This document shows, piece after piece, positions 1-21,499 of a stretch of 64,000 nt of DNA (position 1 is its first letter; every line of letters begins with the position of its first letter). Made by a program: the position numbers and the translations under genes. The stretch spans positions 41,280 through 105,279 of the forward strand of contig JAAXXG010000001.1 of the NCBI GenBank assembly GCA_013334575.1, written 5' to 3'. Source of the stretch: Candidatus Moraniibacteriota bacterium. Its GTDB lineage: Bacteria > Patescibacteriota > Minisyncoccia > Moranbacterales > UBA1568. Under the pieces are notes generated by a model, which was not told the DNA's origin, ran no database searches, and worked only from the letters and a program-made list of their open reading frames with translations.

Positions 1-613
1 GGGTGCCGATATCGTCGTCATTCCGAACGGGGTCGATATGCCACAGGAGCCGGCGCAACCTGAGACCGGTAAACATGTCCTGTTTATCGGGCGGACCGAG
101 GTCGATCAGAAGGGGTTGGACCTCTTGGTATCCGCGTGGTCGTCGGTGGCATCTCGCGTTTCGGTACCGCTCCTGATAGCGGGTGACGGTCAGGCGACGG
201 AATCGCGGCGACTCAAGGAAATCGTCGATGGCTCCGGCTGTGCCGATTCGATACGACTCGTCGGGCACGTTACCGGAGCGGAGAAAGACAGCCTGTTCCG
301 TGATGCCGCATTGGTCGCAATCCCGTCCCGGTTCGAGACCTTTTCCATGGTCGCGCTCGAGGCGTTCTCGTACGGGCTTCCGGTTGTCGCGTTCGACATT
401 TTGAACACGGGATGGTTTCCGGATGAGGCGGCAATTCGTATCGACCTGTTCGATACGGTGTCGTTCGGCAAGGCGATTGTATCCCTTCTTGACGATCCGG
501 ACCGACGTCGTCGCATGGGTGCGGCGGCCCGGGAGTCCGTGCGGCACTATGATTGGGACGGTATCGCCGAGCGCTATATTCGACATGCCGATCTTGTGAC
601 AGGAACGCTATGA
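1..613 (+). CDS. Glycosyltransferase family 4 (GT-B fold), C-terminal part; 5' end lies outside the window
   Basis: The frame is open from position 2 (GADIVVIPNGVD...). GT4-type motifs are present: EVDQKGLDLL, FETFSMVALEAFSYGLPVVAF. The stop overlaps the next start (ATGA). Confidence 0.8.
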   Translation, partial: GADIVVIPNGVDMPQEPAQPETGKHVLFIGRTEVDQKGLDLLVSAWSSVASRVSVPLLIAGDGQATESRRLKEIVDGSGCADSIRLVGHVTGAEKDSLFRDAALVAIPSRFETFSMVALEAFSYGLPVVAFDILNTGWFPDEAAIRIDLFDTVSFGKAIVSLLDDPDRRRRMGAAARESVRHYDWDGIAERYIRHADLVTGTL

Positions 614-1398
614 ATCTGGACAATCTCATCGAAACGATCGTCGCCGAGCGGATTCCGCTCCGATTCGTCTCTCCGCACCTCGATGACGCCGCGTTGTCGT
701 GCGGCAATCTTATGACGTACCTGCTTGGGAAGACCGATATGGAGGTCTGGACGGTCTTTACCGAGGCGTCCGCTCCTCCGTATACGCTGTCTGCAAAGGC
801 GTTCCTTTCCCAGTGCGGGATTTCGGATGCCAACCGGCTGTTTAGGGTACGGAAGGACGAGGACAAAGAGGTCCTTGACAGGTTGCGGTCCGGCTTCCGT
901 CATCTCGGTCATCCGGATGCGCTCTTTCGTCGTCGGAAGGTCGGCTTGTTCCTTCGGACGATCGCCCGACTTGTTCCGGAATTCGATCATGCGTATCCGA
1001 CCTATCGATGGCATGTCGTGACAGGCCGGGTCGCCTTATCGGAGGAGGCATTTCAAAGTCATATTCTTTCGGAAATTACGGAAGGTGTGACCGAAAGGGT
1101 TCCGATTCTCTTTTTTCCGCTCGGTTTGGGAAAGCATGTGGATCACGTACTGGTACGTGAGGTCGGCTTGCAATATTCCGGTCCTGTGGTATTCTATTCC
1201 GATTTCCCATATAGCCTGTCCGATCGTCCGGATCAGGGATTCCTGGACCGTCACGGACTCCGGAGTCACCAGTTCGGAGGGGCGGAGGGGGCCAAGCGGG
1301 AACTCATCGGTCTGTACGGCAGTCAGCACCTCTTCGAGGGCGACATCCCGGTTGTTTCCGAGGAGTATTTCTTCCGTGATGCTATCATGAAAGTATGA
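610..1398 (+). CDS. PIG-L/LmbE family N-acetylglucosaminyl deacetylase
   Basis: N-terminal SPHLDDAALSCG matches the PIG-L zinc-binding HxDD motif region. Start is ATG 610 in an ATGA overlap with the upstream stop. Confidence 0.65.
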   Translation: MNLDNLIETIVAERIPLRFVSPHLDDAALSCGNLMTYLLGKTDMEVWTVFTEASAPPYTLSAKAFLSQCGISDANRLFRVRKDEDKEVLDRLRSGFRHLGHPDALFRRRKVGLFLRTIARLVPEFDHAYPTYRWHVVTGRVALSEEAFQSHILSEITEGVTERVPILFFPLGLGKHVDHVLVREVGLQYSGPVVFYSDFPYSLSDRPDQGFLDRHGLRSHQFGGAEGAKRELIGLYGSQHLFEGDIPVVSEEYFFRDAIMKV

Positions 1399-2999
1399 AG
1401 TTCCGATTTGAAGGCCTGAGAGATATGATCCGACGAGAGGCGTTTGTTTTTGGCTGCGTCTGGTTCGTGATGATCCTTTTGCTTGTATCGGGAATACGCG
1501 GATTACCGGGAAATCCTGGAATCGATGAATTGAATACGGCTTCATGGACTGGAACGGGCCCTTTTGAATCCTCAAACGACAGGGGGCGATTCGCATTGAC
1601 GTATTCGCTTCTTGAAGACCACTCCCTGTCGTTTTCGATTCCAGTCGCGGCATTTGCCGCTCCCGATCTTGCAGTGACGGCTGACGGGCGTTATGTGTCT
1701 CTTTTTGCGCCGGGCGTATCATTTATGCTGATACCCGGGTACTACATAGGAAGACTGTTTCATTATTCTCAGGTCGGCGCGTTCGTCGTAGTGAGTCTTG
1801 TTGCCTTCGTAAATGCAGTGTTGCTGTACCTGATTGCCCGAAGAATCGGCGTTGGGAGAATCGCATCTCTAATCGGTTCGTTTGCTTTTCTGTTCGCGAC
1901 ACCGGCATTTACGTATGCCGTGTCCGTATCGCAGCATCATTTTGCGGTATTCTTCATATTTGCAAGCATATACGCGCTTCTCAAGTGGGACGATTGGAAA
2001 GCTCTCTTATTGGTGTGGTTTCTCTGTGCATGGTCCGTCGCAGTCGATAATCCGAATCTTTTCCTGCTGTTTCCGATCGGACTCTTAGCCTTGGTTAGGA
2101 TTGTTCGGACGAGGATATCGTCGGACCGTATTCGTATCACGTTGAAGCCGTTACGGGTTTTTACCATACTGATAATGATTGTCCCGCTTGTTTTTTTCGG
2201 GTGGTATAACTCGAACGCGAACGGTAGCGCCTTTCAGCTTGCTGGAACCCTTCGGCGAGCGCTGTCGGTATCGCAGTATCAGTCTGAAAGCGAACAGAGA
2301 GAGCTCGAGACGCTTGTTGCGATGCACGAAGAGGGGACCGGAGATTCCGGGACGGATTCTCCGAGTACGGTCGGATTCTTCAAGACGAGAAACCTGTACA
2401 ACGGTTTTTTCGTCCACTTCCTCAGTCCCGATCGCGGTATTTTGTATTTTACTCCGGTCGTGCTTTTCGGGATCGCCGGACTTGTCATATTGTCCAGAAA
2501 GAGAAGGGAACTCGCGAATACTTTGATTGCCGTTGTCGGCGTGAATATCTTGTTGTATTCAATGTGGGGTGATCCCTGGGGTGGATGGTCGTTCGGGTCG
2601 AGATATCTAGTGCCAACTTATGCGGTTCTTTGTCTTGCTGCAACCGTCGCTGTCGAACAATGGAGAAAGAATCGGATATTCATGCTTGTTTTCCTGTTGA
2701 TTTTTGGGTATTCATTGTGGATAAACGTACTTGGTGCGCTCGGAACCAATGCGATTCCACCACAGGCGGAAGTTCTGGCTCTCGAGCAGCTGACCGGACA
2801 TGAGGAAAAGTATACATACCAGCGGAGTTGGGATTACCTTGTCGTTAACGGCTCGAAGTCGTTGGTGTATCAGACAATTGCGAAACAGGAGATTACCGGG
2901 ATTCAATACTACCTGATTGTCGGTTCAATCGGTATGGTTGCTGCAACCTTGCTGGTCGTAGGCCTTCATTTCTCGTCACGCGCAAAAGATACCGTATGA
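1395..2999 (+). CDS. GT-C fold integral membrane glycosyltransferase (PMT/ArnT-like, GT39/GT83-type)
   Basis: 534 aa with more than 10 predicted TM helices and an acidic residue pair in the first extracytoplasmic loop (IDELN). Size and architecture match dolichyl/undecaprenyl-phosphate-sugar dependent transferases. ATGA overlap with the upstream gene. Confidence 0.55.
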   Translation: MKFRFEGLRDMIRREAFVFGCVWFVMILLLVSGIRGLPGNPGIDELNTASWTGTGPFESSNDRGRFALTYSLLEDHSLSFSIPVAAFAAPDLAVTADGRYVSLFAPGVSFMLIPGYYIGRLFHYSQVGAFVVVSLVAFVNAVLLYLIARRIGVGRIASLIGSFAFLFATPAFTYAVSVSQHHFAVFFIFASIYALLKWDDWKALLLVWFLCAWSVAVDNPNLFLLFPIGLLALVRIVRTRISSDRIRITLKPLRVFTILIMIVPLVFFGWYNSNANGSAFQLAGTLRRALSVSQYQSESEQRELETLVAMHEEGTGDSGTDSPSTVGFFKTRNLYNGFFVHFLSPDRGILYFTPVVLFGIAGLVILSRKRRELANTLIAVVGVNILLYSMWGDPWGGWSFGSRYLVPTYAVLCLAATVAVEQWRKNRIFMLVFLLIFGYSLWINVLGALGTNAIPPQAEVLALEQLTGHEEKYTYQRSWDYLVVNGSKSLVYQTIAKQEITGIQYYLIVGSIGMVAATLLVVGLHFSSRAKDTV

Positions 3000-4651
3000 G
3001 AACTCTGGATAGACATCAAAATCCCATAGAAGCGGAAATTTCGCTGGACAGGCGGAGCGCCGACCGATTCGTCAGATTCATCGATCGAAACTCGACCTTC
3101 CTTGTGACTGTCCTGCTTACCTTTGTTTCGGTATCCGCGTTCGCATATTATTACGCGAACGGCCTCGGTGTGGCGTACAACGACGCTCGGTCGCACCTCG
3201 ACATCGGCCGCCGCGTCGTCGAGGGGCTCAATCCCGGCGCCGCGCAGCTCGGATCGGTATGGCTGCCGCTCACGCACGCCCTGATGGGTCTCACCATCTG
3301 GAACGACTTCATGTGGCACTCGGGACTGGCCGGGGCGCTCTGGTCCATGATCGCGTTCGTCGGCACCGGAGTGCTGATCGACCGATACCTGAAGGAGATC
3401 GGAGTCGGCCTGCTCGGGCGCTTTACCGGTGTCGGCATCTTCGCCGCGAACCTCAATACGCTCTACCTGCAGTCGACCGCCATGACCGAACTCATGCTGC
3501 TCGGTACGATGACCGCCGGATGCTATTTCTTCCTGCTGTGGTACAAAAGACGGAAGATTCTCCATCTTGTCGCCGCGGCGTTCTTCATCGCGCTCTCGAC
3601 GCTCGTGCGGTACGACGGATGGTTCCTGCTCTTCATGGCGGCGGCGATACTCTTCCTGTCCACCTGGCGTGAGGGCGGGTACCGGAAGGCGGAGGGACTC
3701 TTCATCCTGTTCTCGACGCTCGGGGGATTCGGCGTCGCGCTCTGGGTGCTGTGGAACGCGCTTATCTTCAAGGATCCGCTTTACTTCGCGTTCGGTCCGT
3801 ATTCCGCGCATGCCCAGCAGGACCAGCTCGAGAGCGCCGGTGTCCTGCCGACCAAATGGCACTGGCTGCCGTCCATCAAGGTCTACTTTTACGCGCTCGC
3901 GTACAACTCCGGCGCGTTCACGATGATCCTCGGACTCGTCGGGCAGGTGACCATGTGGCTTGACCGGCGTCTTTCCCGGGAAGTTCGGACCGCGAGCGCG
4001 TTACTCGTCGCGCCGCTTCTCTTTAACGTGCTCGCTCTGTATCTGGGTCATTCCGTGCTCTACATCCAGGGTCTTTCCGGCGATACCTGGTTCAATGTCC
4101 GCTACGGTATCATGATGCTTCCCTCGTTCGCGATCGCGATCGGATATCTGACGGACCGACTCCGCGGTCTGCGGTTCACGCTCGTCGGACTCCTCCTGTT
4201 CACGACATTCTTCATGTTCTCGAGCGGGGATGCCGTAACCATCGACGATGCCCGCGTCGGCTCGAGTCAGAAGAACGTGAGCGAGGTGTCCGGATGGTTA
4301 CATGCCAATGCCGGACCGAAGAAGGGATTCATCCTCATCTCCGCCGCCTCTCACGACTCGGTCATCTTCTCGTCCGGTCTGCCGATGAGCCGGTTCATAC
4401 ACGAGGGCACCGGCAAATACTATGACGCGGCCATCGAAAGCCCCGATCATTGGGCTCGCTGGATCGTCGTGCGCAGCTATTCCGACGACGACTCCACCTG
4501 GCGCCAGCTCAAGGATAACGAGGGGTTCCTGGAGCGCTTTGAGAAGGTCGATTCCTATCCGTTCGCGGACATCTACGAGCTGCGACCCGAGTTCATTTCG
4601 GGCCTCGTGACGGATCAGATCTTCGCCGACAATCCGGGTAGCGAACGCTGA
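2996..4651 (+). CDS. GT-C fold membrane glycosyltransferase paralog (PMT/ArnT-like) with a soluble C-terminal domain
   Basis: 551 aa with a multi-TM N-terminal half and a soluble C-terminal ~150 aa. It is tandem to the previous GT-C gene, with an ATGA overlap. Confidence 0.5.
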   Translation: MRTLDRHQNPIEAEISLDRRSADRFVRFIDRNSTFLVTVLLTFVSVSAFAYYYANGLGVAYNDARSHLDIGRRVVEGLNPGAAQLGSVWLPLTHALMGLTIWNDFMWHSGLAGALWSMIAFVGTGVLIDRYLKEIGVGLLGRFTGVGIFAANLNTLYLQSTAMTELMLLGTMTAGCYFFLLWYKRRKILHLVAAAFFIALSTLVRYDGWFLLFMAAAILFLSTWREGGYRKAEGLFILFSTLGGFGVALWVLWNALIFKDPLYFAFGPYSAHAQQDQLESAGVLPTKWHWLPSIKVYFYALAYNSGAFTMILGLVGQVTMWLDRRLSREVRTASALLVAPLLFNVLALYLGHSVLYIQGLSGDTWFNVRYGIMMLPSFAIAIGYLTDRLRGLRFTLVGLLLFTTFFMFSSGDAVTIDDARVGSSQKNVSEVSGWLHANAGPKKGFILISAASHDSVIFSSGLPMSRFIHEGTGKYYDAAIESPDHWARWIVVRSYSDDDSTWRQLKDNEGFLERFEKVDSYPFADIYELRPEFISGLVTDQIFADNPGSER

Positions 4652-5934
4652 TGATCCGAAGGGCACTCTTTATTCTTGCTATCGGGACGCTCCCTGTCTT
4701 TCTGTGGGCGTACGCGAATCTCATTCCGGAGAAGCGCGTCTTTTATCCCGTCGAACGCGTCAGCACCTTTCCGTTTCAGTCGGTCGATACCATGAAGTAC
4801 TCGCGCGATCTCGCTCGCGAGAAGGCCGAGGACGTCTCTTTCGACGCGATTATCGAACGACAGGTCGCCGCCATCGCGGAATCCGGCGCGACACATGTCG
4901 CGGTCGCGACACCCTACGACGAAGAGTTCGCGCCCATGCTCGCGCGTTGGATCTCGTCGGCCAGGCGTCACGGGATCAAGGTGTGGTTCCGCGGGAACCT
5001 TTCCGGTTGGGAGGGGTGGTTCGGCTATCGGAAAATCACCCGTGCGCAGCATCTTTCCGGAATCGTCTCGTTCATCAATTCGCATCCCGAGTTCTTCGAG
5101 GATGGGGATGCGTTCTCGACCTGTCCCGAGTGCGAGAACGGCGGTCCGGGTGATCCGCGGCAGACGGGCGATGTCGCCGGTTTCCGGCAGTTCCTCGTTT
5201 CCGAGCATGATGCGGCAAGAGACGCGTTTCGAAAGATGGGAAAGGACGTGCGAACGGACCTGTTTTCCATGAACGGCGACGTCGCGCGTCTCGTGATGGA
5301 CAGACCGACGACCAAGGCGCTCGGTGGCACGGTGACCATCGATCACTACGTGAAGACGCCGGAATGGCTTGTCGCCGATGCGGAGGCTATCGCCAAGCAA
5401 AGCGGCGGGACCGTGGTATTCGGCGAATTCGGCGCGCCTATTCCGGACATACACGGCGAGATGACCGAGGAACAGCAGGCGCAGTGGCTCGAATCGGCGA
5501 TGCGTCTCCTCTCGGGCTCTTCCGCGGTGTCCGGTGCGAACTACTGGTCGGCGGTCGGAAGCTCGACGCAGCTTTGGGATAGCGAAGGGAATCCGTCCAA
5601 GGCGGCGAAGGTGCTCCGACAGTATTACCGTCCCCGTATCGCGCAGGGCATCGTCTCGGATGAGTTGGGAAGGGTATTGTCCGGTGTCTCCGTCACGTCC
5701 TCAAGCGGGGCGACGGCGGTGACCGATACACATGGGCACTATTCGTTCGGCGTTCCGGGAACGGAAACGGCGACGATCCGTTTTTCCCTGGACGGTTACG
5801 ACTCCCGAGAGGTCGCGTTTACCGGTGACACGCCGGAGACCGATGTCATTTTGCGGCCAATATATACGAACCCGCGCTACCGACTCCTGCGCCTGTTCGG
5901 CAGGTTCTTCGGTTTTTTGCACATGGCACAGTAA
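4651..5934 (+). CDS. Secreted/membrane-anchored protein: putative TIM-barrel glycoside hydrolase-like domain plus C-terminal carboxypeptidase-regulatory-like beta-sandwich
   Basis: N-terminal hydrophobic anchor (ALFILAIGTLPVFLWAYA). The FGEFG motif is compatible with a GH5-type nucleophile region. The C-terminal SSSGATAVTDTHGHYSFGVPGTETATIRF resembles a CarboxypepD_reg fold. TGATG overlap with the upstream gene. Confidence 0.35.
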   Translation: MIRRALFILAIGTLPVFLWAYANLIPEKRVFYPVERVSTFPFQSVDTMKYSRDLAREKAEDVSFDAIIERQVAAIAESGATHVAVATPYDEEFAPMLARWISSARRHGIKVWFRGNLSGWEGWFGYRKITRAQHLSGIVSFINSHPEFFEDGDAFSTCPECENGGPGDPRQTGDVAGFRQFLVSEHDAARDAFRKMGKDVRTDLFSMNGDVARLVMDRPTTKALGGTVTIDHYVKTPEWLVADAEAIAKQSGGTVVFGEFGAPIPDIHGEMTEEQQAQWLESAMRLLSGSSAVSGANYWSAVGSSTQLWDSEGNPSKAAKVLRQYYRPRIAQGIVSDELGRVLSGVSVTSSSGATAVTDTHGHYSFGVPGTETATIRFSLDGYDSREVAFTGDTPETDVILRPIYTNPRYRLLRLFGRFFGFLHMAQ

Positions 5935-6218
5935 TCACATCAGAGGAACCGATAGTACCGATGGATATCCGAGTGTCGAATCAGTTGGTTCGCGATGAGG
6001 CGTGCAAGGAGTCTATCTCAAAATTCGCTTCACTGTCATTCCGGAATCCGCCCGAGCATGCGCCAGGCAAGAGCCGGAATCTATTTCCTGGATCCCACCC
6101 CGGCATTCGCAGGGCAAGGGTCAACCGGCATACGCCGGTCAAAAGCCCGGGATGAAAAAACCATAGTTTTCGCAGATCGAAATATGCTCTGGTATTTTCG
6201 TATTGAAAGCGACCGGAT

Positions 6219-6247
6219 TTGACAGCTTCTCCGTACGGAGGTATCAA
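6219..6247 (+). promoter_or_regulatory. sigma70-like promoter TTGACA-17-TATCAA
   Basis: TTGACA at 6219-6224, a 17-nt spacer, then TATCAA. It lies about 300 nt upstream of the first tasA-like gene. Confidence 0.4.
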
Positions 6248-6348
6248 GGAGGTAAGAGCGGTGCGGAATCGGAGAGGAGTCAGTCGTTCGTCCGACGAAT
6301 GAACCTCGTATGACCTGCTACCACAATTTTCAGCCCGGTGCGGTACGG

Positions 6349-6410
6349 AAGGCCGACGGAAGCATGACAGCGAAGGCTGTCGCGTTTCCGTCGGTTTTTT
6401 CTTTGTCTCG
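6349..6410 (+). terminator. Intrinsic terminator (long nested hairpin plus U-tract)
   Basis: ccgacggaagc...gtttccgtcgg outer stem with a gacagc/gctgtc inner stem, followed by tttttt-cttt. Confidence 0.5.
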
Positions 6411-6518
6411 GAGAATGCTTCCGGGACGGGCGCAGAAACCGAGACGCCGCGGGAGCGAATCTCCCGGTCGATGTGGCGAGGTGGAAAGGTGAAATATGTT
6501 TTTCATAATTCAAATCCT

Positions 6519-7124
6519 ATGATGAAAATCTTGAAGAGTCTCGGGCTCATCGGGGCGGTCGTCGCGGTCGCGGGCGGCGCCACCTACGCGTACTTCAGCG
6601 ACACGGAGACGTCGTCGGGGAATACCATCGCCGCTGGAACGCTCGACCTGCAAATGAGCGGAGAAGGGACGGTGCCGTTCAGCGTGACGGACGCGTATCC
6701 GGGGATGCCGGCAGTGAAACGGCTTGTCCATGTGAAGAACGCGGGGTCGATCAATGGCCATCTGCAATTCACTGGCGCGACCGTCTCAAATGATGAAAAT
6801 GGTTTGAAGGAACCGGAAAGTTCAGACGGCGATAGCACGGACGGTGCGAGTGGAGGTGAGCTTTGTGCGAACCTCGAAGTGCAGGTCTCTTTCGTGGGTG
6901 GAGCATCTGATGTGGTGCTCTATCCGTGGGGATCGCTTGCGGCGCTCAATCCGACCGGAGATGCTCTGATGCCGGCGGCAGCCGAGCGGGATCTGAAGGT
7001 GGAGTTCCGCGTACCGGGAACGGTTGGAAATACGATTCAGAGTGATATTTGCGGGATCAATTACGGTCTCAAACTCGTCCAGGATGTGAATCAGGACGGA
7101 ACCGCCGATGAGGACGGACATTGA
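6519..7124 (+). CDS. TasA/camelysin-like secreted protein with SipW-cognate class signal peptide
   Basis: MMKILKSLGLIGAVVAVAGGATYAYFSDTETSSGNTIAAGTLDL aligns with the B. subtilis TasA N-terminus (GGGTWAAFND...ASGTLDLS). The downstream PG..K....V.N.GS region is also TasA-like. Confidence 0.7.
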   Translation: MMKILKSLGLIGAVVAVAGGATYAYFSDTETSSGNTIAAGTLDLQMSGEGTVPFSVTDAYPGMPAVKRLVHVKNAGSINGHLQFTGATVSNDENGLKEPESSDGDSTDGASGGELCANLEVQVSFVGGASDVVLYPWGSLAALNPTGDALMPAAAERDLKVEFRVPGTVGNTIQSDICGINYGLKLVQDVNQDGTADEDGH

Positions 7125-7245
7125 TCGGTAGGCTTGGTGTGCTCCCGGGGCCGATAGGAGCCCCGGGAGCGGGGTGACGGTAGACTACCGTTTGACCGTG
7201 CGACGGTAACGGGAGCATGACGGATAATCCGTGTCGACGAACGAT

Positions 7246-7947
7246 ATGATGAGGATACTGAAGAGTCTGTTCCTCATTTCGGCGGTCGTCGCGGTGGTAG
7301 GAGGGGCGACATACGCGTATTTCAGTGATACCGAAACGAGCGAAGGCAATACGGTGACGGCGGGAACCCTCGACCTCAAGGTTGGCGGCAAAGACGATCC
7401 GCTTGTCGAGAAGATCTCGGTGGGCGATATATATCCCGGAAGCGTCGTTACCAAGACGTGGAAGGTGGAGAATGCCGGGTCGGTTCCCGGCAAGGTGAAG
7501 GTGAAAATCAGGAACATAGCCGATAACGACAACGGCTGCGAGGAGCCCGAATCTCCGGGTGAGATCGCGGAATACGGCTTGGCGACCTGCGGTGCGGGCG
7601 AAGGGGAACTTTCAAGTTATCTGCGCACGCGCGTGTTTCAGAGCCATGTGAACTCGAACAATCCGGACTGGGGCATCAACGACTATCATTCGTACAATCT
7701 CGCCGGGCGGCACCCGGGCGGTTCGCCGTACGGTGGTGTGAAGTATATCGAGAACCTGTCCATGGGCGGGCAGTTAACGCTCAATCCGGGCGAGTTCCAG
7801 GTCATCAAGCTCGATATGCGTCTCGATCCGGACGTGAAGAGTCTGAGCGACTGGGGCGGCTGGCTGACTCATGATGTGAATGACAATCTTCTTCAGGGTG
7901 ATTCGACGACCTTCGATGTCGAATTCACGCTGGAACAGGTACACTGA
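7246..7947 (+). CDS. TasA/camelysin-like secreted protein paralog with SipW-cognate signal peptide
   Basis: MMRILKSLFLISAVVAVVGGATYAYFSDTETSEGNTVTAGTLDLKVGG. Tandem paralog of 6519..7124. Confidence 0.7.
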   Translation: MMRILKSLFLISAVVAVVGGATYAYFSDTETSEGNTVTAGTLDLKVGGKDDPLVEKISVGDIYPGSVVTKTWKVENAGSVPGKVKVKIRNIADNDNGCEEPESPGEIAEYGLATCGAGEGELSSYLRTRVFQSHVNSNNPDWGINDYHSYNLAGRHPGGSPYGGVKYIENLSMGGQLTLNPGEFQVIKLDMRLDPDVKSLSDWGGWLTHDVNDNLLQGDSTTFDVEFTLEQVH

Positions 7948-8039: not shown

Positions 8040-8693
8040 ATGAAACGGTTTCTCTCCATCGTGAACGGACTGGTCATGACGCTCCTCGTTTTGGTAGCGC
8101 TTCTTTCGCTTTCCTCGGCGTTCTCGGTGGGCGGGGTGCGGACCTTCTCGGTGTTGTCCGGGTCGATGGAGCCGACCATCCATACCGGAAGCGTCATCGT
8201 GACCGTACCGGCTTCGTCGTATGCAGTCGGAGACATCGTGACGCGCCGAACGGAGAACGCTTCCGTGACCGTGACGCACCGCATCGCCGAGGCATCGGAG
8301 AAGGGTGAAACGACGATGTTTCGTACGAAGGGCGATGCGAACGACATCGCGGACAGCGAGACGTTTCCGGAGGCGGATATTCTCGGCAGGGTACGCTTCT
8401 CGATCCCGTGGCTCGGCTATGTCGCGAGTTTCGCACGGACACGCGAGGGCTTCCTTCTCTTGGTCATCATCCCGGCGGTCATCGTGGTCTACGAGGAACT
8501 GCGGAAGCTGAAGGACGAGGTCGTGCGGCTTTGGCGGAAACGGCGGGAACGGAAGACCCTGTCGCGGGTCCGTATCGACGACGGGCCGAAGCCGGACCGA
8601 CCGGTCGCTCGTCCTGTTTCCGTGCCGGAAGGCAATATCGGCGAGATGCAATTCGGAGGACGGGAAGACGTGCCGAGGAAAAAGATCGTATGA
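8040..8693 (+). CDS. sipW: Signal peptidase I, SipW (archaeal/ER Sec11-type)
   Basis: N-terminal TM, then the SGSMEPT catalytic-Ser motif, a His in TVTHRIAEA, and KGDANDIADSE (GDxN box). A C-terminal TM is followed by a basic tail. Confidence 0.75.
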   Translation: MKRFLSIVNGLVMTLLVLVALLSLSSAFSVGGVRTFSVLSGSMEPTIHTGSVIVTVPASSYAVGDIVTRRTENASVTVTHRIAEASEKGETTMFRTKGDANDIADSETFPEADILGRVRFSIPWLGYVASFARTREGFLLLVIIPAVIVVYEELRKLKDEVVRLWRKRRERKTLSRVRIDDGPKPDRPVARPVSVPEGNIGEMQFGGREDVPRKKIV

Positions 8694-11970: not shown

Positions 11971-14900
11971 ATGACGCTCAGTTTGACCCGAAGGTTCCGC
12001 AGGTGGTTCCGCGTCTTCGACGCGGTCGTGATCCTGGCGATGACTTTCCAGCCGGTCGCCCCGGCGGTGATTTTCTCGCAGGAGGCTCCTGCAGCCGAAG
12101 AGAAGTCGGTTGTGGAGACACCGAAGGATACCGAAGAAGTGAAACCGGAAGAGGAGGCGAAGCAGGAAGTGAAAGCGCCGGAAGCGCCTGTGACCGAGGA
12201 GTCGGAAGTCGCTGCGGCGGTCGAACCGACCGTTTCCGTTCCGGAAGTCGCCGTTAAGACGGAGACTTTGGAAACGGTGACGGATCCGACCGATGGCCAG
12301 TCGGCCGTTTCGGTTGAGGACGGAGCGGATATGCCGACCGAGCCGACCGTGGAAGCGGCCGGAGCGGCGTTCGATGAGCGTGCTCCCGAATGGAAGAAGA
12401 ACGACGACGGCTCGCGGACGATCCGCGTCGTCGTGGGAGAGGAATATGCATATCCGGATTCGGATCTTTCGATCCGGTTCACGAAGATCGATGCCGACAA
12501 GAACGCCGGAAACCCGCGGGAGATTACCGTGAAGTCACTGAAGCTTTCCGGGCGATTGGCGGACTCTCTCCGCTCGGTGTCGGATGACGCCTACGAAATC
12601 ACGTCCAGCATGGAGGATGGCACGTTCGAATATGCGCTTTCCATGCCTATCGGGAAGGGGATCGATGAGGGATCGCTTTCCGCTGCCTATGCGGACGATG
12701 AGCATGCGCTCGAAGACGAACGCATTAAGGAAGTCGATGACGAAGACTTGACGTTTGATGACGACCGTGGGATCGCGACCGTATCGGGAATGGATCATTT
12801 CACGGTTTGGTTTCTGCGGCATGATCCGGATCCCGTGAAAGTGAACATCTGTCACGCGACCGGATCCGAGACGAATCCGTTCACGAAGAACGAGGTGAGC
12901 ATCAACTCGGTCTCGAAGTGTCGCGATGCGGCGGGGCACGATGATCATGGCGGCGATATCATTCCTCCGTACTCGTATGGATCGTGCTCGTTCCGCGGGC
13001 AGAACTGGGATACCGACGGACGGGCCATCTGGAACAACGGCTGCAAGAGGCCGCTCGGATCCGCGACGCTTTTCGTTCGTAAGGAGGTTGTCAATGACGA
13101 CGGAGGAACGCTAGTCGCTCGTGATTTCGGTCTGCGTGTGCTGGATGCTCGCGGGAACGACGTGACGGGGAGTCCTGTCGCAGGCTCGGAATCGGGTATC
13201 GCGTTCGCGCTGCCGGCCGGTTCTTACTGGATCGGAGAGCGTTCCGTCACCGGGTATGTCCTGAAGGGATTCGAAGGGGATTGCGGGGTGGATGGTTCGG
13301 TGACGCTGGTCGCCGGAGAGTCGCGAAGCTGCACCGTCGTGAACGATGATATCGCTCCGCGTCTTACCGTGGTGAAACACGTGATAAACGACAACGACGG
13401 TACGCTTTCGGCAGGAAACTTCACCATGACCGTTTCCGGTACGGGCGTTTCCGAACCGTTCTTCGCTGGAAGCGAAACGGGAACGACGGTGACGCTCCGA
13501 CCCGGATCATACGAAGTCGGAGAGATCGGCGATGCGGGATATTCCATGACCGCGACCGAGTCATGCTCGGGAACGATCGCGCTCGGCGAGCATCGTACCT
13601 GTACGTTGACAAACGACGACAAGGCTCCGGTGAACATCGTCGCGTGGAAGGTCGTCTGTGACAACGAATCCGATTTGCCGAACCGCGACGGGGGCGCGGA
13701 TATATCAGCAACCACGGCTACGGACTACGTGGCGAGTCATCCGTCCTGCCGACTCGTGTCCGGATGGGGCTTCGAATGGGGAAACGAATGGGTAAGCAAT
13801 CCCGGTGACGATTTCGTCGGACCTGCCGGAAACGGTTGGTTGACATTCGGTCCGACCGGAGAGGATGGCTCCGCATCGGTTGCCATCGAGGATTTCTCAG
13901 AACGCGGAATCTGGCTCCGTGAGATCCTGCAGGAAGGGTATCTGCCGTTCACCTATACGCTCAACGGAAATACGAACGCGAACGATGTGTCCGCGGAATT
14001 TTTCTGCGACACCGACGTCGAGAACTACGATAATCAGGAGTGGATTCCGAATCCGGTTCGCGGCGCTACGTATCATTGCGTCGCGTGGAATGTCGGATTG
14101 GGATCGATTCACGGACGCAAGTGGGAGGACCTCGACGGAAACGGAACGATGGACGAAGTCGAGAATCTTCTGGGGGGATGGACGGTTTTTCTGGATAAAG
14201 ACGGAGACGGTGACCTTGATAAGGGAGAAGAATCGACCGAGACCGCTTCCGAGGGCGATCATTTCGGTTGGTACCGGTTCGGGAATCTGCTTCCGGGTAC
14301 CTACTCGGTCTGCGAGGTTCCGCGGGAGGGTTGGGTACAAAGCTATCCCGGTACCGTTTCCGAACCCGCATGTCATTCGGTCACGGTTCCCGATTCCGGT
14401 AATCGCGAGTCGGCTGGAAATTCGGTTGACGGTTCAGCGTACGACTTCGGAAACGGAAGACTCGGAACGCTCTCGATAGAGAAATTCAACGATGCGACGT
14501 CGCCGAAGAAGCCTGGCGAGACCGTGAAATATACGCTGCGCATATCCGCGTCCGAGGGGCGCGTTCTCGGTGTCAGCGTGACCGACCTTCCGCCGTCGGT
14601 GGCGGCATATGTCGACGGTTCCTGGTCGGCCGAGTCCAGCGAGGGCTCGTCGCATATCGGCGCGCTCGCGCTTGATCACGAGTACCACTCGCCGGGCGTA
14701 TGGGCTCTCGGCGATATGCTTCCGGGCGAGGTGATCACCCTTTCCTACGACGCGCTGGTGGCGGATGGTACCGATGCGGGTCAATATCCGGACCTCGCGT
14801 ACGCGCAGGGTGTCGGTCGGAGCGGAAATCTGTATGCCATGGCCGGTATCGGTGGAAACATCGATGATTCGCGCTATGTCGGAACGGCGATCGCCGTAGC

Positions 14901-16101
14901 GGATACGGATACGGCGGATCCCGCGAAGGTGACGACCGACCATCACGAGAAGGAACAGAAGGTCGTGAAGGGGCGGGTGCTCGGCGCGACGCTTCCGGAA
15001 ACGGGATCACCCTCGTTCATCCTGGTCCTCGCTCTCCTGCTTGTCGGAATCGGCGGCGCGACGCTTGCGATCGGAGGATCTGTAAGGAGCGGGAAACTCC
15101 GCGCGTACCTGCGGCGGACGGTTCGCCGATGGGCCATCGTGCCGGTAGTTGTCTTGACTGGAGCGTCCTGGGCATGGGGAACGGTCGATGCGGGATCCAT
15201 ACCGGACCTCTATATCCGGGCGGAAAGTCCTGAGTCGGCCGCGAACGGATCCTTCCTGATGGACTATGTGACGCTCGATACGGACAAGCAGGGAGGTATC
15301 GACGTTTCGTGTCAGGTGAAGAAGCCGGGGGCGTCCGGGTTCGCGACGTTCCAGACTGCCGTGATCGACAACGAACAAGGGGGAAATTCCGGACAGTGCG
15401 AAGTGGGTCCGTCGGAGCTTGCCGACGACGGAACGTATGTCTTCCGCGTGAAGGCGGAATCTGGAAGCGAAGAAGCGTTGAGCGCGGAATATTCCGTGGC
15501 ATACGATTCGACGCTGCCGGGTAGGCCGAAATCGATCGACAAGAGCTATGTGTCCAGCTGTATTAACCGCGTGAAGCTCCGTACCGCGGACGACGGTCAG
15601 ACGACACGCGTGGAAGTGTATCGTTCGACGAGTGAGGATTTCATGGCGGACGCCTCGACCCTGGTTCATACGGCTGTCGTCGGTCCGAATGCGACGTACG
15701 AGTATGACGATGCGCGTCCGTCCGCCATCTGCGGAAACAGGACGTATTACGCGGTACGCGCGTTCGACGATGCGGGGAACGCGTCTCCGGTACGTGAGGA
15801 GGATATGACCGAGACGAACAAGACGACCGCATACGAGGATGTGACGACGGAAGGCTCGGTAACGCTGAAGCCGGGCGCCGGTACGACGGTTTCCGAAGGA
15901 ACCGGTTCTGGCGAGACGACGGTGACCGGAGAGGTTGCCGGCGAGCAGTCCGGCAGCGGGGAGGGAACGGTCGAAGGAGCGGAGACGACCGCAGGCGGTT
16001 TCCCGCGGTGGGGATGGATACTTGTCGCGCTCGCGGCGTATGCCGGGTACCGGTGGTATGCTCTCCGGAAAGAACGGAAGGCGAGAATGCCGAAGATCTA
16101 G
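11971..16101 (+). CDS. 1,376-aa cell-surface adhesin-like protein with prealbumin/Cna-B/SdrD-B-like and DUF11-like repeats, an internal LPETG sorting signal and a second C-terminal membrane anchor
   Basis: N-terminal signal/anchor. Repeated V.NDD.AP beta-sandwich modules. SdrD-B-like DLDGNGTMDE...DKDGDGDLD. LPETG at nt 14992-15006, followed by a hydrophobic stretch and RSGKLRAYLRRTVRRW, then about 360 more aa ending in a TM plus KERKARMPKI. Confidence 0.7.
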   Translation: MTLSLTRRFRRWFRVFDAVVILAMTFQPVAPAVIFSQEAPAAEEKSVVETPKDTEEVKPEEEAKQEVKAPEAPVTEESEVAAAVEPTVSVPEVAVKTETLETVTDPTDGQSAVSVEDGADMPTEPTVEAAGAAFDERAPEWKKNDDGSRTIRVVVGEEYAYPDSDLSIRFTKIDADKNAGNPREITVKSLKLSGRLADSLRSVSDDAYEITSSMEDGTFEYALSMPIGKGIDEGSLSAAYADDEHALEDERIKEVDDEDLTFDDDRGIATVSGMDHFTVWFLRHDPDPVKVNICHATGSETNPFTKNEVSINSVSKCRDAAGHDDHGGDIIPPYSYGSCSFRGQNWDTDGRAIWNNGCKRPLGSATLFVRKEVVNDDGGTLVARDFGLRVLDARGNDVTGSPVAGSESGIAFALPAGSYWIGERSVTGYVLKGFEGDCGVDGSVTLVAGESRSCTVVNDDIAPRLTVVKHVINDNDGTLSAGNFTMTVSGTGVSEPFFAGSETGTTVTLRPGSYEVGEIGDAGYSMTATESCSGTIALGEHRTCTLTNDDKAPVNIVAWKVVCDNESDLPNRDGGADISATTATDYVASHPSCRLVSGWGFEWGNEWVSNPGDDFVGPAGNGWLTFGPTGEDGSASVAIEDFSERGIWLREILQEGYLPFTYTLNGNTNANDVSAEFFCDTDVENYDNQEWIPNPVRGATYHCVAWNVGLGSIHGRKWEDLDGNGTMDEVENLLGGWTVFLDKDGDGDLDKGEESTETASEGDHFGWYRFGNLLPGTYSVCEVPREGWVQSYPGTVSEPACHSVTVPDSGNRESAGNSVDGSAYDFGNGRLGTLSIEKFNDATSPKKPGETVKYTLRISASEGRVLGVSVTDLPPSVAAYVDGSWSAESSEGSSHIGALALDHEYHSPGVWALGDMLPGEVITLSYDALVADGTDAGQYPDLAYAQGVGRSGNLYAMAGIGGNIDDSRYVGTAIAVADTDTADPAKVTTDHHEKEQKVVKGRVLGATLPETGSPSFILVLALLLVGIGGATLAIGGSVRSGKLRAYLRRTVRRWAIVPVVVLTGASWAWGTVDAGSIPDLYIRAESPESAANGSFLMDYVTLDTDKQGGIDVSCQVKKPGASGFATFQTAVIDNEQGGNSGQCEVGPSELADDGTYVFRVKAESGSEEALSAEYSVAYDSTLPGRPKSIDKSYVSSCINRVKLRTADDGQTTRVEVYRSTSEDFMADASTLVHTAVVGPNATYEYDDARPSAICGNRTYYAVRAFDDAGNASPVREEDMTETNKTTAYEDVTTEGSVTLKPGAGTTVSEGTGSGETTVTGEVAGEQSGSGEGTVEGAETTAGGFPRWGWILVALAAYAGYRWYALRKERKARMPKI

Positions 16102-21066: not shown

Positions 21067-21103
21067 TTTCGGCGGCTTCGTTTCTGTGGGTCGTGCAGGG
21101 CTC
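21067..21103. repeat. 37-bp direct repeat, copy B (overlaps the 3' end of the intact tRNA-Lys)
   Basis: Identical to 20889..20925. Confidence 0.8.
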
Positions 21104-21159
21104 GAACCTGCGACCGTTGGCTTAAAAGGCCACTGCTCTACCAGCTGAGCTAACGACCC
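21087..21159 (-). tRNA. tRNA-Lys (anticodon TTT)
   Basis: Reverse complement is GGGTCGTTAGCTCAGCTGGTAGAGCAGTGGCCTTTTAAGCCAACGGTCGCAGGTTCGAGCCCTGCACGACCCA. All four stems pair. Confidence 0.9.
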
Positions 21160-21321
21160 GGAATATGCCGATCCCGATCTTTCATTTTATTTCCGGTGCC
21201 ATTGTCGTCTAGGGCTCGGTCACGGATATCTTTCACGCCGTCGCATGAAAGATTCCTCGACCCCGGCTCGCTGTCCGGTCTGCTGACCAAACGACGCTCC
21301 GCCTTTCGAATCCTGACGGAT

Positions 21322-21379
21322 TCGAACCTGCGACCGTTGGCTTAAAAGGCCACTGCTCTGCCAGCTGAGCCAACGACCC
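21322..21379 (-). pseudogene. Truncated tRNA-Lys: 5' fragment covering positions 1-58, with the 3' T-stem/acceptor replaced
   Basis: 58 nt match the intact gene apart from two D-arm substitutions. The 3' T-stem and acceptor cannot pair (CCGTC / AGGATTC). The fragment is followed by an 8-bp perfect hairpin, tcgaatcc-tgac-ggattcga. Confidence 0.7.
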
Positions 21380-21499
21380 GGAAACATGGCAAGTATATAC
21401 TTGCTCTTACAAGGCGTCAATCAGTCGCTTTTCGGGCATCGGTCCTTCTGATATACTGATTCCGTGCCGGAAACGGCCGAAAATAACCATCGGACCAAT

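Follow-up and report, generated by a model that had tools for sequence, protein, structure and literature searches.

What is made by a gene run in which two predicted membrane glycosyltransferases of the GT-C fold stand side by side, and on which acceptor do they act? This question is raised by the first 5,934 nucleotides (nt) of a 64,000-nt stretch of DNA, here called the window, from a Candidatus Moraniibacteriota bacterium of the Patescibacteriota (assembly GCA_013334575.1, contig JAAXXG010000001.1, positions 41,280 to 105,279, forward strand). An earlier note, made from the sequence alone, had described this region as a five-gene translationally coupled glycosylation operon with tandem GT-C enzymes resembling protein O-mannosyltransferases (PMT) or ArnT. 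We found that positions 1-5934 are the distal (3') 5.9 kb of an eight-gene cluster and not a complete five-gene operon, and that the two GT-C genes, named here A and B, and the gene that follows them, ORF5 (for open reading frame), form with a giant protein encoded upstream the conserved core of this cluster. Our reading of it, which we consider reasonably probable, is that the cluster assembles a cell-envelope glycan and is a variant of the multi-component transmembrane glycosylation and polysaccharide assembly systems, with a polysaccharide as the acceptor. The eight genes, in order, are the following, where GT2 and GT4 denote glycosyltransferase families and L086 is a Logan contig from the same organism that extends beyond the window.

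Upstream of the window (L086), same strand: giant multi-domain protein, 1584 amino acids (aa), in four parts: GT2, GT2, flippase-like and GT4
Upstream of the window (L086), same strand: GT2, 315 aa
Upstream of the window (L086), same strand: Acetyltransf_6 (FemAB/CelD-like) acyltransferase, 376 aa
Up to 613, + strand: 3' two-thirds of a GT4 gene, its 5' end lying beyond the window start
610-1398, + strand: PIG-L/LmbE-family de-N-acetylase (Pfam PF02585), 262 aa, predicted cytoplasmic
1395-2999, + strand: A, polytopic membrane glycosyltransferase with a predicted GT-C fold, 534 aa (524 aa if the start is at 1425)
2996-4651, + strand: B, polytopic membrane glycosyltransferase with a predicted GT-C fold, 551 aa, with a C-terminal extracytoplasmic alpha/beta domain at about residues 440-540
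4651-5934, + strand: ORF5, 427 aa, with an N-terminal membrane anchor or signal, a conserved domain of about 290 aa and a CarboxypepD_reg domain

The five plus-strand ORFs and all the junctions given by the note are present in the sequence, namely ATGA at 610-613, 1395-1398 and 2996-2999 and TGATG at 4649-4653, but the number of genes is not five. Contig L086 is identical to the window across 8016 nt, and on it the cluster comprises eight tightly packed same-strand genes over about 13.3 kb that start about 7.4 kb upstream of the window. The starts called independently on L086 for the PIG-L gene, B and ORF5 agree with the ORFs of the window; that of gene A is called at window position 1425 (Met11), 30 nt after 1395, and because of this the overlap at 1395 depends on the choice of start codon. 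An alignment of homologue N-termini cannot decide between the two starts. The rest of the window, 58 kb, has comparable overlaps at about three or four plausible junctions between genes (8690/8693, 41680 and 52342), so that four consecutive overlaps in 5.9 kb are locally unusual. Elsewhere the A-B junction is also tight: an overlapping start candidate was found in 53 of 71 loci, 24 of these of the 4-nt type, and the gap in the other 18 is 30 nt or less. A promoter and terminator scan of positions 1-7300 gave no more sites than shuffled sequence and carries no information on operon boundaries.

How widely this arrangement is conserved was examined with a two-peptide DNA scan for relatives of B, which found them in at least 332 species-representative genomes; 80 loci, from Microgenomates, Parcubacteria and WWE3 lineages, were kept for analysis. 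Synteny was counted over 82 non-redundant loci with 84 cases of B, and the presence of deacetylases and of the giant ORF over the 59 loci that have at least 7 kb of upstream sequence. A lies directly upstream of B in 71 of the 84 cases, while ORF5 lies directly downstream in 65 and within four genes in 75. A giant or edge-cut ORF containing GT4 was present upstream in 43/59 loci. The other upstream genes vary from lineage to lineage and include GT2 (60 loci), GT4, carbohydrate esterase family 4 (CE4) deacetylases, APH-like kinase, DRL oxidoreductase, methyltransferases, Rml/NTP-transferase and FemAB-like genes. The A-B-ORF5 trio, whose synteny is seen in about 80 Patescibacteria loci, makes up the conserved core together with the giant protein. 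Identity within the shared loci is 56-79% for B, 43-55% for A and 39-57% for ORF5, which makes B the best conserved of the cluster's genes, perhaps because its acceptor or partner does not vary. In the searchable literature, outside which most subscription journals lie, we found no description of the trio and no link between Patescibacteria and GT-C enzymes, and this absence is no proof of novelty.

The GT4 and PIG-L genes, in contrast to this core, are a variable accessory module. Their identities had been called correctly. The GT4 matches Pfam Glyco_trans_1_4 (1.7e-25) and Glycos_transf_1 (3.9e-22) in its window part, which holds the last 203 codons; the full gene (L086 8080-9189) begins 497 nt before the window, and its 369-aa product has the domains Glyco_transf_4 and Glycos_transf_1. 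Its best NCBIfam resemblance is to MshA and BshA, far below their cutoffs, and no transmembrane (TM) segment was predicted in it. The PIG-L protein scores 36.2 bits against a cutoff of 28.2 for PF02585, its translation shows the zinc-binding motifs PHLDD (H23, D25, D26) and HVDH, and no TM or signal segment was predicted. PIG-L is present in 13 of the 59 loci, always adjoining a GT4, and CE4 in 29; either one is found in 39 loci, both in three and neither in 20. The idea that PIG-L and CE4 are strictly mutually exclusive was rejected on these counts.

If A and B are glycosyltransferases, then their fold should say so even where their sequences do not. An identical record exists for protein A, namely hypothetical protein HGB18_00230 from a metagenome-assembled genome (MAG) of Candidatus Moranbacteria. 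More than 1000 homologues of A, all unannotated Patescibacteria proteins, and more than 2000 of B are present in a set of 5.8 billion proteins; among about 50 listed homologues of the two, every source name is hypothetical protein and the named organisms are almost entirely Patescibacteria MAGs. AlphaFold models built from 32-sequence alignments had a predicted local distance difference test (pLDDT) score of 88.2 and a predicted template modelling (pTM) score of 0.90 for A, and 76.9 and 0.75 for B. All Foldseek matches of A at probability 1.0 are GT-C enzymes (Pmt4 at 1.9e-5, ArnT at 2.9e-5, ALG12, AglB and STT3), and the high-probability matches of B are GT-C enzymes only (STT3, ALG12 and ArnT). 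The structural ranking for both is flat across GT39, GT22, GT66, GT83 and GT58 at 7-14% identity. The models thus establish the GT-C fold of A and B, as had been proposed, but do not place either protein in GT39, GT83 or GT66, and sequence gives neither of them a family.

The sequence comparisons themselves were as follows. A scored 19.3 bits against Pfam PMT (PF02366), for which the cutoff is 22.7, over a partial stretch (residues 138-269), and did not match PMT_2 (PF13231). B has no Pfam match of its own, PMT and PMT_2 included. Sub-threshold matches were seen in 1/32 members of the A family (PMT) and in 3/32 of the B family (PMT in one and PMT_2 in two). The best curated match of A is the NCBIfam model NF047440 (E 3.7e-16, residues 92-273), at 59 bits far below its cutoff of 200; B matches it marginally (E 0.004). 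This model, LA_3751/LA_3752 putative glycosyltransferase, is an uncharacterised family named after two consecutively numbered Leptospira loci, and the searchable literature held no mention of it. At E <= 0.1, A, B and 64 family members showed neither PMT_4TMC nor MIR domains. The C-terminal sequence of B has no visible WWDYG-type oligosaccharyltransferase motif, and sequence and profile searches of the PDB with A, B and ORF5 returned nothing relevant. A and B share a stretch (WGDPWGGW.FGSRY / SGDTWFNVRY), and an hhalign comparison of the two gave a probability of 18% (E 1.3e-3), so that paralogy is not demonstrable by sequence.

Acidic residues are conserved in the first outside loop, where the note had asked for DE/DxD motifs to be checked on an alignment. 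D63 of B, about nine residues past the first TM helix (33-54 in the model), is conserved in 100% of 127 diverged relatives, in which R205 and R369 are conserved in 99-100% and W89 and E165 are conserved as well. In the first loop of A, P56, S60, E74 and D91 are invariant, and E58 (at least 90%), R63, G64 and R65 are nearly so. D63 is likely to be the catalytic base of B, and the conserved residues fit the pattern of a base and phosphate-binding residues of GT-C enzymes.

A search with a hidden Markov model profile of B over 1.84 billion cluster representatives placed B in a much larger family, with 2577 clusters at E <= 1e-3, of which 809 reach E <= 1e-30. About two clusters in this set hold the whole tight Patescibacteria subfamily, the remaining wide family scores 300-510 bits, and at least one member is from the Chloroflexota (Ktedonobacteraceae MBA2286223.1). 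The PMT_2 cutoff of 26.1 bits was passed, at 27-35 bits, by 11 of 16 sampled relatives that bear the B module; the passers listed, with B-profile E-values of 1e-83 to 1e-148, are P0244, P0250, P0252, P0255, P0263, P0266, P0300, P0312, P0331, P0338, P0347 and P0355. Since it is members of the wide family that pass, B is placed in the ArnT/PMT_2 branch by transitive homology only. The description PMT/ArnT-like therefore stands at the level of the superfamily, but by sequence B and A are not members of GT39/PMT, and neither of them matches the GT83/ArnT-type model PMT_2 itself.

The wide family also contains natural fusions of B, and these bear on donor and acceptor. GtrA, GT2 and B are joined in one chain in P0355, and GtrA, GT2 and a GT-C enzyme are a complete three-component glycosylation system by the definition of PMC8035078; this fusion argues for polyprenyl-phosphate-sugar donors. 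A GT2-B fusion is found in P0312. B is fused to a synthase-like GT2 in five clusters, to a glycoside hydrolase family 5 (GH5) domain in five, and to an ORF5-like domain in four distinct clusters, and one Ktedonobacteraceae protein joins a synthase-like GT2, B and GH113. The fusions to processive GT2 synthases, and glycanases of clan GH-A in the place of ORF5, argue that the acceptor is a polysaccharide, and the glycanases in this position argue also that ORF5 is a glycanase or transglycosylase. A and B themselves occur as a single chain (P0242), a 1065-aa ORF at L088 6001-9198 that is found in L089 too, that is, in two assemblies with canonical gene context.

Three of the related loci have further features of their own. 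The L088 cluster also encodes a polysaccharide pyruvyl-transferase (PS_pyruv_trans) and a CE4 deacetylase, and at the position of ORF5 it has a 323-aa gene that has no Pfam match, followed by a gene of 180 aa, the size of the small secreted protein u206 described below, and a sortase. A distant cluster, L087 1-9774, consists of GT2, a B-ORF5 fusion, a B-like gene (516 aa), LPG_synthase_TM, which is the family of the MprF flippase domain, a second B-like gene (502 aa) and an ORF5-like gene (429 aa), and thus has several B paralogues and no A. L016 9010-19571 has tandem copies, A-B-ORF5, then B-ORF5, then an 863-aa B variant, which suggests duplication and diversification of the GT-C/glycanase pair.

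What, then, is ORF5? The earlier description of it as a secreted hydrolase-like protein is plausible. Its N-terminus is hydrophobic (aa 4-26) and could be an anchor or a signal, and a CarboxypepD_reg beta-sandwich at aa 332-393 scores 33.2 bits against a cutoff of 32.3. The N-domain of about 290 aa drew no match better than E 0.01 from Pfam or the PDB, also when a profile of 43 sequences was used, and only one of 43 family members has a Glyco_hydro_cc match, at 0.015. Support for a hydrolase is indirect and comes from a homologue: the domain fused to B in P0252 matches the ORF5 profile by hhalign with probability 100 (E 8.9e-82), and this domain passes Glyco_hydro_cc (PF11790) with 26.2 bits against 21, over the equivalent of ORF5 residues 228-315, a segment that contains GEFGAP. 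The residues invariant in the ORF5 family include E160, E162, N163 and E259, in the motifs CPECENGG and GEFGAP. From this we take ORF5 to be probably a clan GH-A-type glycoside hydrolase of a new glycanase family. That it is a cryptic GH5 or GH113 enzyme was rejected, as hhalign comparisons with the GH5 and GH113 fusion domains were negative.

The giant protein would provide the cytoplasmic side of the pathway. Part 1 (aa 2-213) is an ArnC-like GT2 (NF007986, 1.3e-26, far below the equivalog cutoff) with hydrophobic segments following at 275-322, part 2 is a CelA/PgaC-like processive GT2 with TM helices, part 3 has 8-10 TM helices and matches the Wzx-type model Polysacc_synt_3 across 2-287 of its 293 profile positions at 23.0 bits, and part 4 is a C-terminal GT4. 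For the counterpart in locus L003, Polysacc_synt is recorded.

Taken with the fusions, this gene content would fit the following scheme. At the cytoplasmic face the giant protein would supply an ArnC/GtrB-like GT2, a processive synthase-like GT2, a Wzx-like flippase and a GT4, and lineage-variable tailoring enzymes would act alongside it, in this genome the GT2, the FemAB/CelD-like acyltransferase and the GT4 with PIG-L. The GT4 may add an N-acetyl-hexosamine of the GlcNAc type from which PIG-L would remove the acetyl group, with the FemAB-like enzyme possibly re-acylating it. Together these proteins would build one or more polyprenyl-phosphate-linked sugars and a glycan chain. Once these have been flipped or exported, A and B, which probably form a complex, would work at the outer face of the membrane and transfer a sugar or an oligosaccharide from a polyprenyl-phosphate donor to a surface polysaccharide, and the membrane-anchored ORF5, a putative glycanase or transglycosylase with a carbohydrate-binding-like beta-sandwich, may bind, trim or release the polymer. 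The polysaccharide pyruvyl-transferase in the L088 cluster is counted for such a glycan-assembly function.

Several points weigh against this scheme. Donor, acceptor and product are all inferred. A and B fall below every curated family threshold, the match of the predicted flippase domain lies exactly at its Pfam cutoff, and the candidate hydrolase function of ORF5 rests on the fused homologue, its own Pfam and PDB matches being absent and hhalign to GH5 negative. The cluster showed neither a phosphoglycosyl-transferase nor an LCP-type ligase. Co-transcription is unproven, as the promoter and terminator scans were uninformative. The A-B fusion is one cluster and could be a frameshift at the overlapping junction. 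Lastly, ORF5 is followed in 36/82 related loci by a sortase substrate whose linker is rich in Ser/Thr, and this would also fit a protein acceptor.

This last point leads to the rival explanation that survives best, which is nevertheless unlikely, namely that A, B or both are PMT- or TfpW-type enzymes that transfer polyprenyl-phosphate sugars to Ser/Thr residues of surface proteins such as the TasA-like fibres, the LPETG adhesin, pilins or sortase substrates. The best structural matches include Pmt4 and Pmt2, and secreted TasA-like proteins and an adhesin are encoded just downstream in this genome. The small secreted protein (u206) found after ORF5 in the 36 loci has a signal peptide, a Cys-rich domain with QTNWWK, a Ser/Thr/Gly-rich linker and, at its C-terminus, VLGLA[ST]TG followed by a TM segment and a basic tail, which is a LAxTG sorting signal; the gene next to it in these loci encodes a sortase of about 180 aa (PF04203, 1e-21). 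Examples of this module are at L027 12063-12632, L039 12007-12873 and L054 5832-6374 (sortase), and the glycan system could have in this pair a wall-anchored partner or acceptor. However, the Pfam PMT threshold was missed, MIR and PMT_4TMC are lacking, no WWDYG-type motif is visible in the C-terminus of B, and the flat structural ranking does not single out GT39. Protein O-mannosylation, as the note had suggested, is hard to square with the fusions of B to GH5, GH113, Glyco_hydro_cc-like domains and synthase-type GT2, which point to a polysaccharide acceptor. Nor does the neighbourhood help, because homologues of u206 and of the sortase are absent from the window, and the neighbours that it does contain, listed here, adjoin the trio in this genome only among the related loci compared.

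6471-7124 and 7231-7947: two Peptidase_M73 (camelysin/TasA-like) genes
8040-8693: signal-peptidase-like gene, S26/S24 (SipW-like), a weak match
After the SipW-like gene, in the region to 10418: two unannotated secreted-looking ORFs
11971-16101: adhesin, 1376 aa, with SpaA_2 and SdrD_B domains and an LPETG motif

A link to the TasA-like proteins and the adhesin was therefore rejected on synteny, which gives no support to the proposal that the GT-C enzymes glycosylate these adjacent fibres or the giant adhesin.

Somewhat less probable still is an ArnT-like charge modification, in which an amino sugar on undecaprenyl phosphate would be de-N-acetylated in the cytoplasm by PIG-L or CE4, in the manner of ArnD, NaxD or LgmC, and flipped, and A or B would then add it as a single cationic residue to a glycolipid or a teichoic-acid-like polymer. 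The ArnC-like GT2 domain of the giant protein speaks for this, as do the deacetylases of the related loci, CE4 being the ArnD family, most of which lack a clear TM or signal segment; A and B both have ArnT as a top structural match, and the GtrA-GT2-B fusion implies monosaccharide-type donors in at least some relatives. On the other hand, the trio is constant while 20/59 loci have neither deacetylase, and a simple decoration would need neither the many GT2 and GT4 genes nor the synthase-like GT2 nor a conserved glycanase-like partner. Also, the GT4 partners of PIG-L in known pathways, MshA, BshA and PIG-A, act on soluble or phosphatidyl acceptors and not on polyprenyl phosphate. The logic of ArnT with a deacetylase, which the note had invoked, has echoes in the ArnC-like GT2, the Wzx-like domain and the deacetylases of 39/59 loci, but the GT4 and PIG-L are not core. 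The third alternative, that A, B or both are non-catalytic GT-C-fold scaffolds or transport/assembly factors (cf. PIG-U/GAB1 of the glycosylphosphatidylinositol transamidase) that organise the synthase and ORF5, can appeal to their escaping all curated glycosyltransferase thresholds, but it is highly improbable given the invariant Asp after the first TM helix and the conserved Arg and Glu across the diverged relatives of B, the invariant acidic and basic residues in the first loop of A, the B relatives that pass PMT_2 and the fusion of B to a donor-making GtrA-GT2 module.

Among known systems the nearest are the multi-component systems of Gram-positive cell-wall polymers, CsbB/GtcA/YfhO, GtlA/GtcA/GtlB and GacI/J/K/L (PMC8035078). 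Shared with these are a GT2 that looks like a polyprenyl-phosphate sugar synthase (the ArnC-like domain), a flippase-like module (Wzx-type here and GtrA-type in P0355), a monoderm host, and a polytopic GT-C enzyme in which an outside loop holds a conserved acidic residue, and relatives of B carry PMT_2 as GtlB and GttB do. The differences are that there are two adjacent and very divergent GT-C enzymes here and not one, that a glycanase-like ORF5 is obligatory, that the predicted donor synthase and flippase are within a giant protein which also holds the processive synthase-like GT2 and a GT4, and that A and B of the window score below all curated family thresholds.

A second comparison is with the lactococcal polysaccharide pellicle/rhamnose-rich cell-wall polysaccharide system (PSP/Rha-CWPS), with WpsA/B, WpsC-F, the flippase WpsG and the GT-C enzymes WpsH/I and WpsJ (PMC10821137). 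As there, conserved initiator, flippase and GT-C components surround strain-variable cytoplasmic glycosyltransferases; that system too has more than one GT-C enzyme on the outer face, for polymerisation and for transfer to another polymer, and builds its oligosaccharide on undecaprenyl monophosphate. Unlike it, the cluster has a GH-like partner and a synthase-like GT2, and it has no rhamnan backbone genes in this genome, Rml genes being found in some related loci only. No sequence relationship between the two is demonstrated, and polymerase or ligase roles for A and B are conjecture.

The ArnC/ArnD/ArnT pathway and its counterparts FlmF2/NaxD/FlmK of Francisella and LgmA/C/B of Bordetella share the order of a GT2 acting on polyprenyl phosphate, cytoplasmic de-acylation, flipping and transfer by a GT-C enzyme, with CE4 genes of the ArnD family in half of the related loci. 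Here, however, PIG-L is paired with a GT4 and not CE4 with a GT2, the family as a whole can dispense with the deacetylase, and A and B themselves are below the PMT_2 threshold. Patescibacteria are regarded as lacking lipopolysaccharide, and lipid A is excluded as the acceptor because of this. With the GT39 enzymes (Pmt1/2/4 and actinobacterial Pmt) the common points are the early acidic residue in loop 1 and a possible hetero-complex of two paralogues, as in Pmt1-Pmt2; the PMT model, however, is below threshold for A and absent for B, identity is 10-14%, and the fusion partners here are glycoside hydrolases and polysaccharide synthase-type GT2s. Synthase-dependent exopolysaccharide systems combine a glycanase and a deacetylase, as in cellulose (BcsA/BcsZ), poly-N-acetylglucosamine (PgaC/PgaB) and Pel (PelF/PelA). 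The cluster is like these in its processive CelA/PgaC-like GT2 with TM helices, its membrane-anchored GH-like enzyme and its frequent deacetylases. Such systems are not known to contain GT-C enzymes, and their deacetylases act outside the cytoplasm; the cluster, in contrast, has GT-C enzymes and a PIG-L protein that lacks an export signal, and no cyclic di-GMP (PilZ) module was seen in it. Known logic is combined here with new parts, which are two GT-C families missed by Pfam and NCBIfam, a probable new GH-like family, and the obligate association of these.

A wider proposal we put forward with much more hesitation. It is possible, and on balance doubtful, that the trio is conserved machinery for an envelope polymer found throughout the Patescibacteria, which would take over the function of teichoic acids or secondary cell-wall polysaccharides, and that in it a GT-C heteromer is physically coupled to a new GH-like family. 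If this is the case, then B would be as conserved as housekeeping proteins because it recognises an acceptor that does not vary, such as a core linked to peptidoglycan or anchored by a lipid, and the variable upstream genes would generate strain-specific surface diversity for host attachment and phage recognition. The Patescibacteria, also called the candidate phyla radiation (CPR), are a large share of bacterial diversity and are host-attached, and their envelope chemistry is almost unstudied experimentally. The trio, whose members are called hypothetical proteins wherever the source records name them, combines a GT-C enzyme of exceptional conservation with a probable new glycanase family and hypervariable tailoring genes. 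It offers a testable handle on their surface glycan and may bear on host attachment, phage receptors and cultivation markers. The fusions of B suggest a broader, undescribed coupling of GT-C enzymes and glycanases in Terrabacteria such as the Chloroflexota.

Some minor observations were made in the course of this work. Many third-party annotation MAG records with a locus of the Patescibacteria type (B 58-74% identical, same synteny; e.g. L037, L008 and L028) bear other taxon titles, such as 'uncultured Bdellovibrionales', 'Gammaproteobacteria', 'Pseudomonadales' and 'Bathyarchaeia archaeon', and these taxonomic labels look unreliable. Between ORF5 and the first TasA-like gene lies a non-coding gap (5935-6470, 536 nt) that is long for a compact genome, and in which nothing was found in Rfam at the gathering threshold and no convincing terminator was seen. 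The Rfam scan of the window returned three tRNAs only. Two of them are tRNA-Lys(UUU) genes on the minus strand, at 21086-21159 and 21306-21380, which lie 150 nt apart, and the second, with 41 bits against 70 in Rfam, may be a degenerate duplicate.

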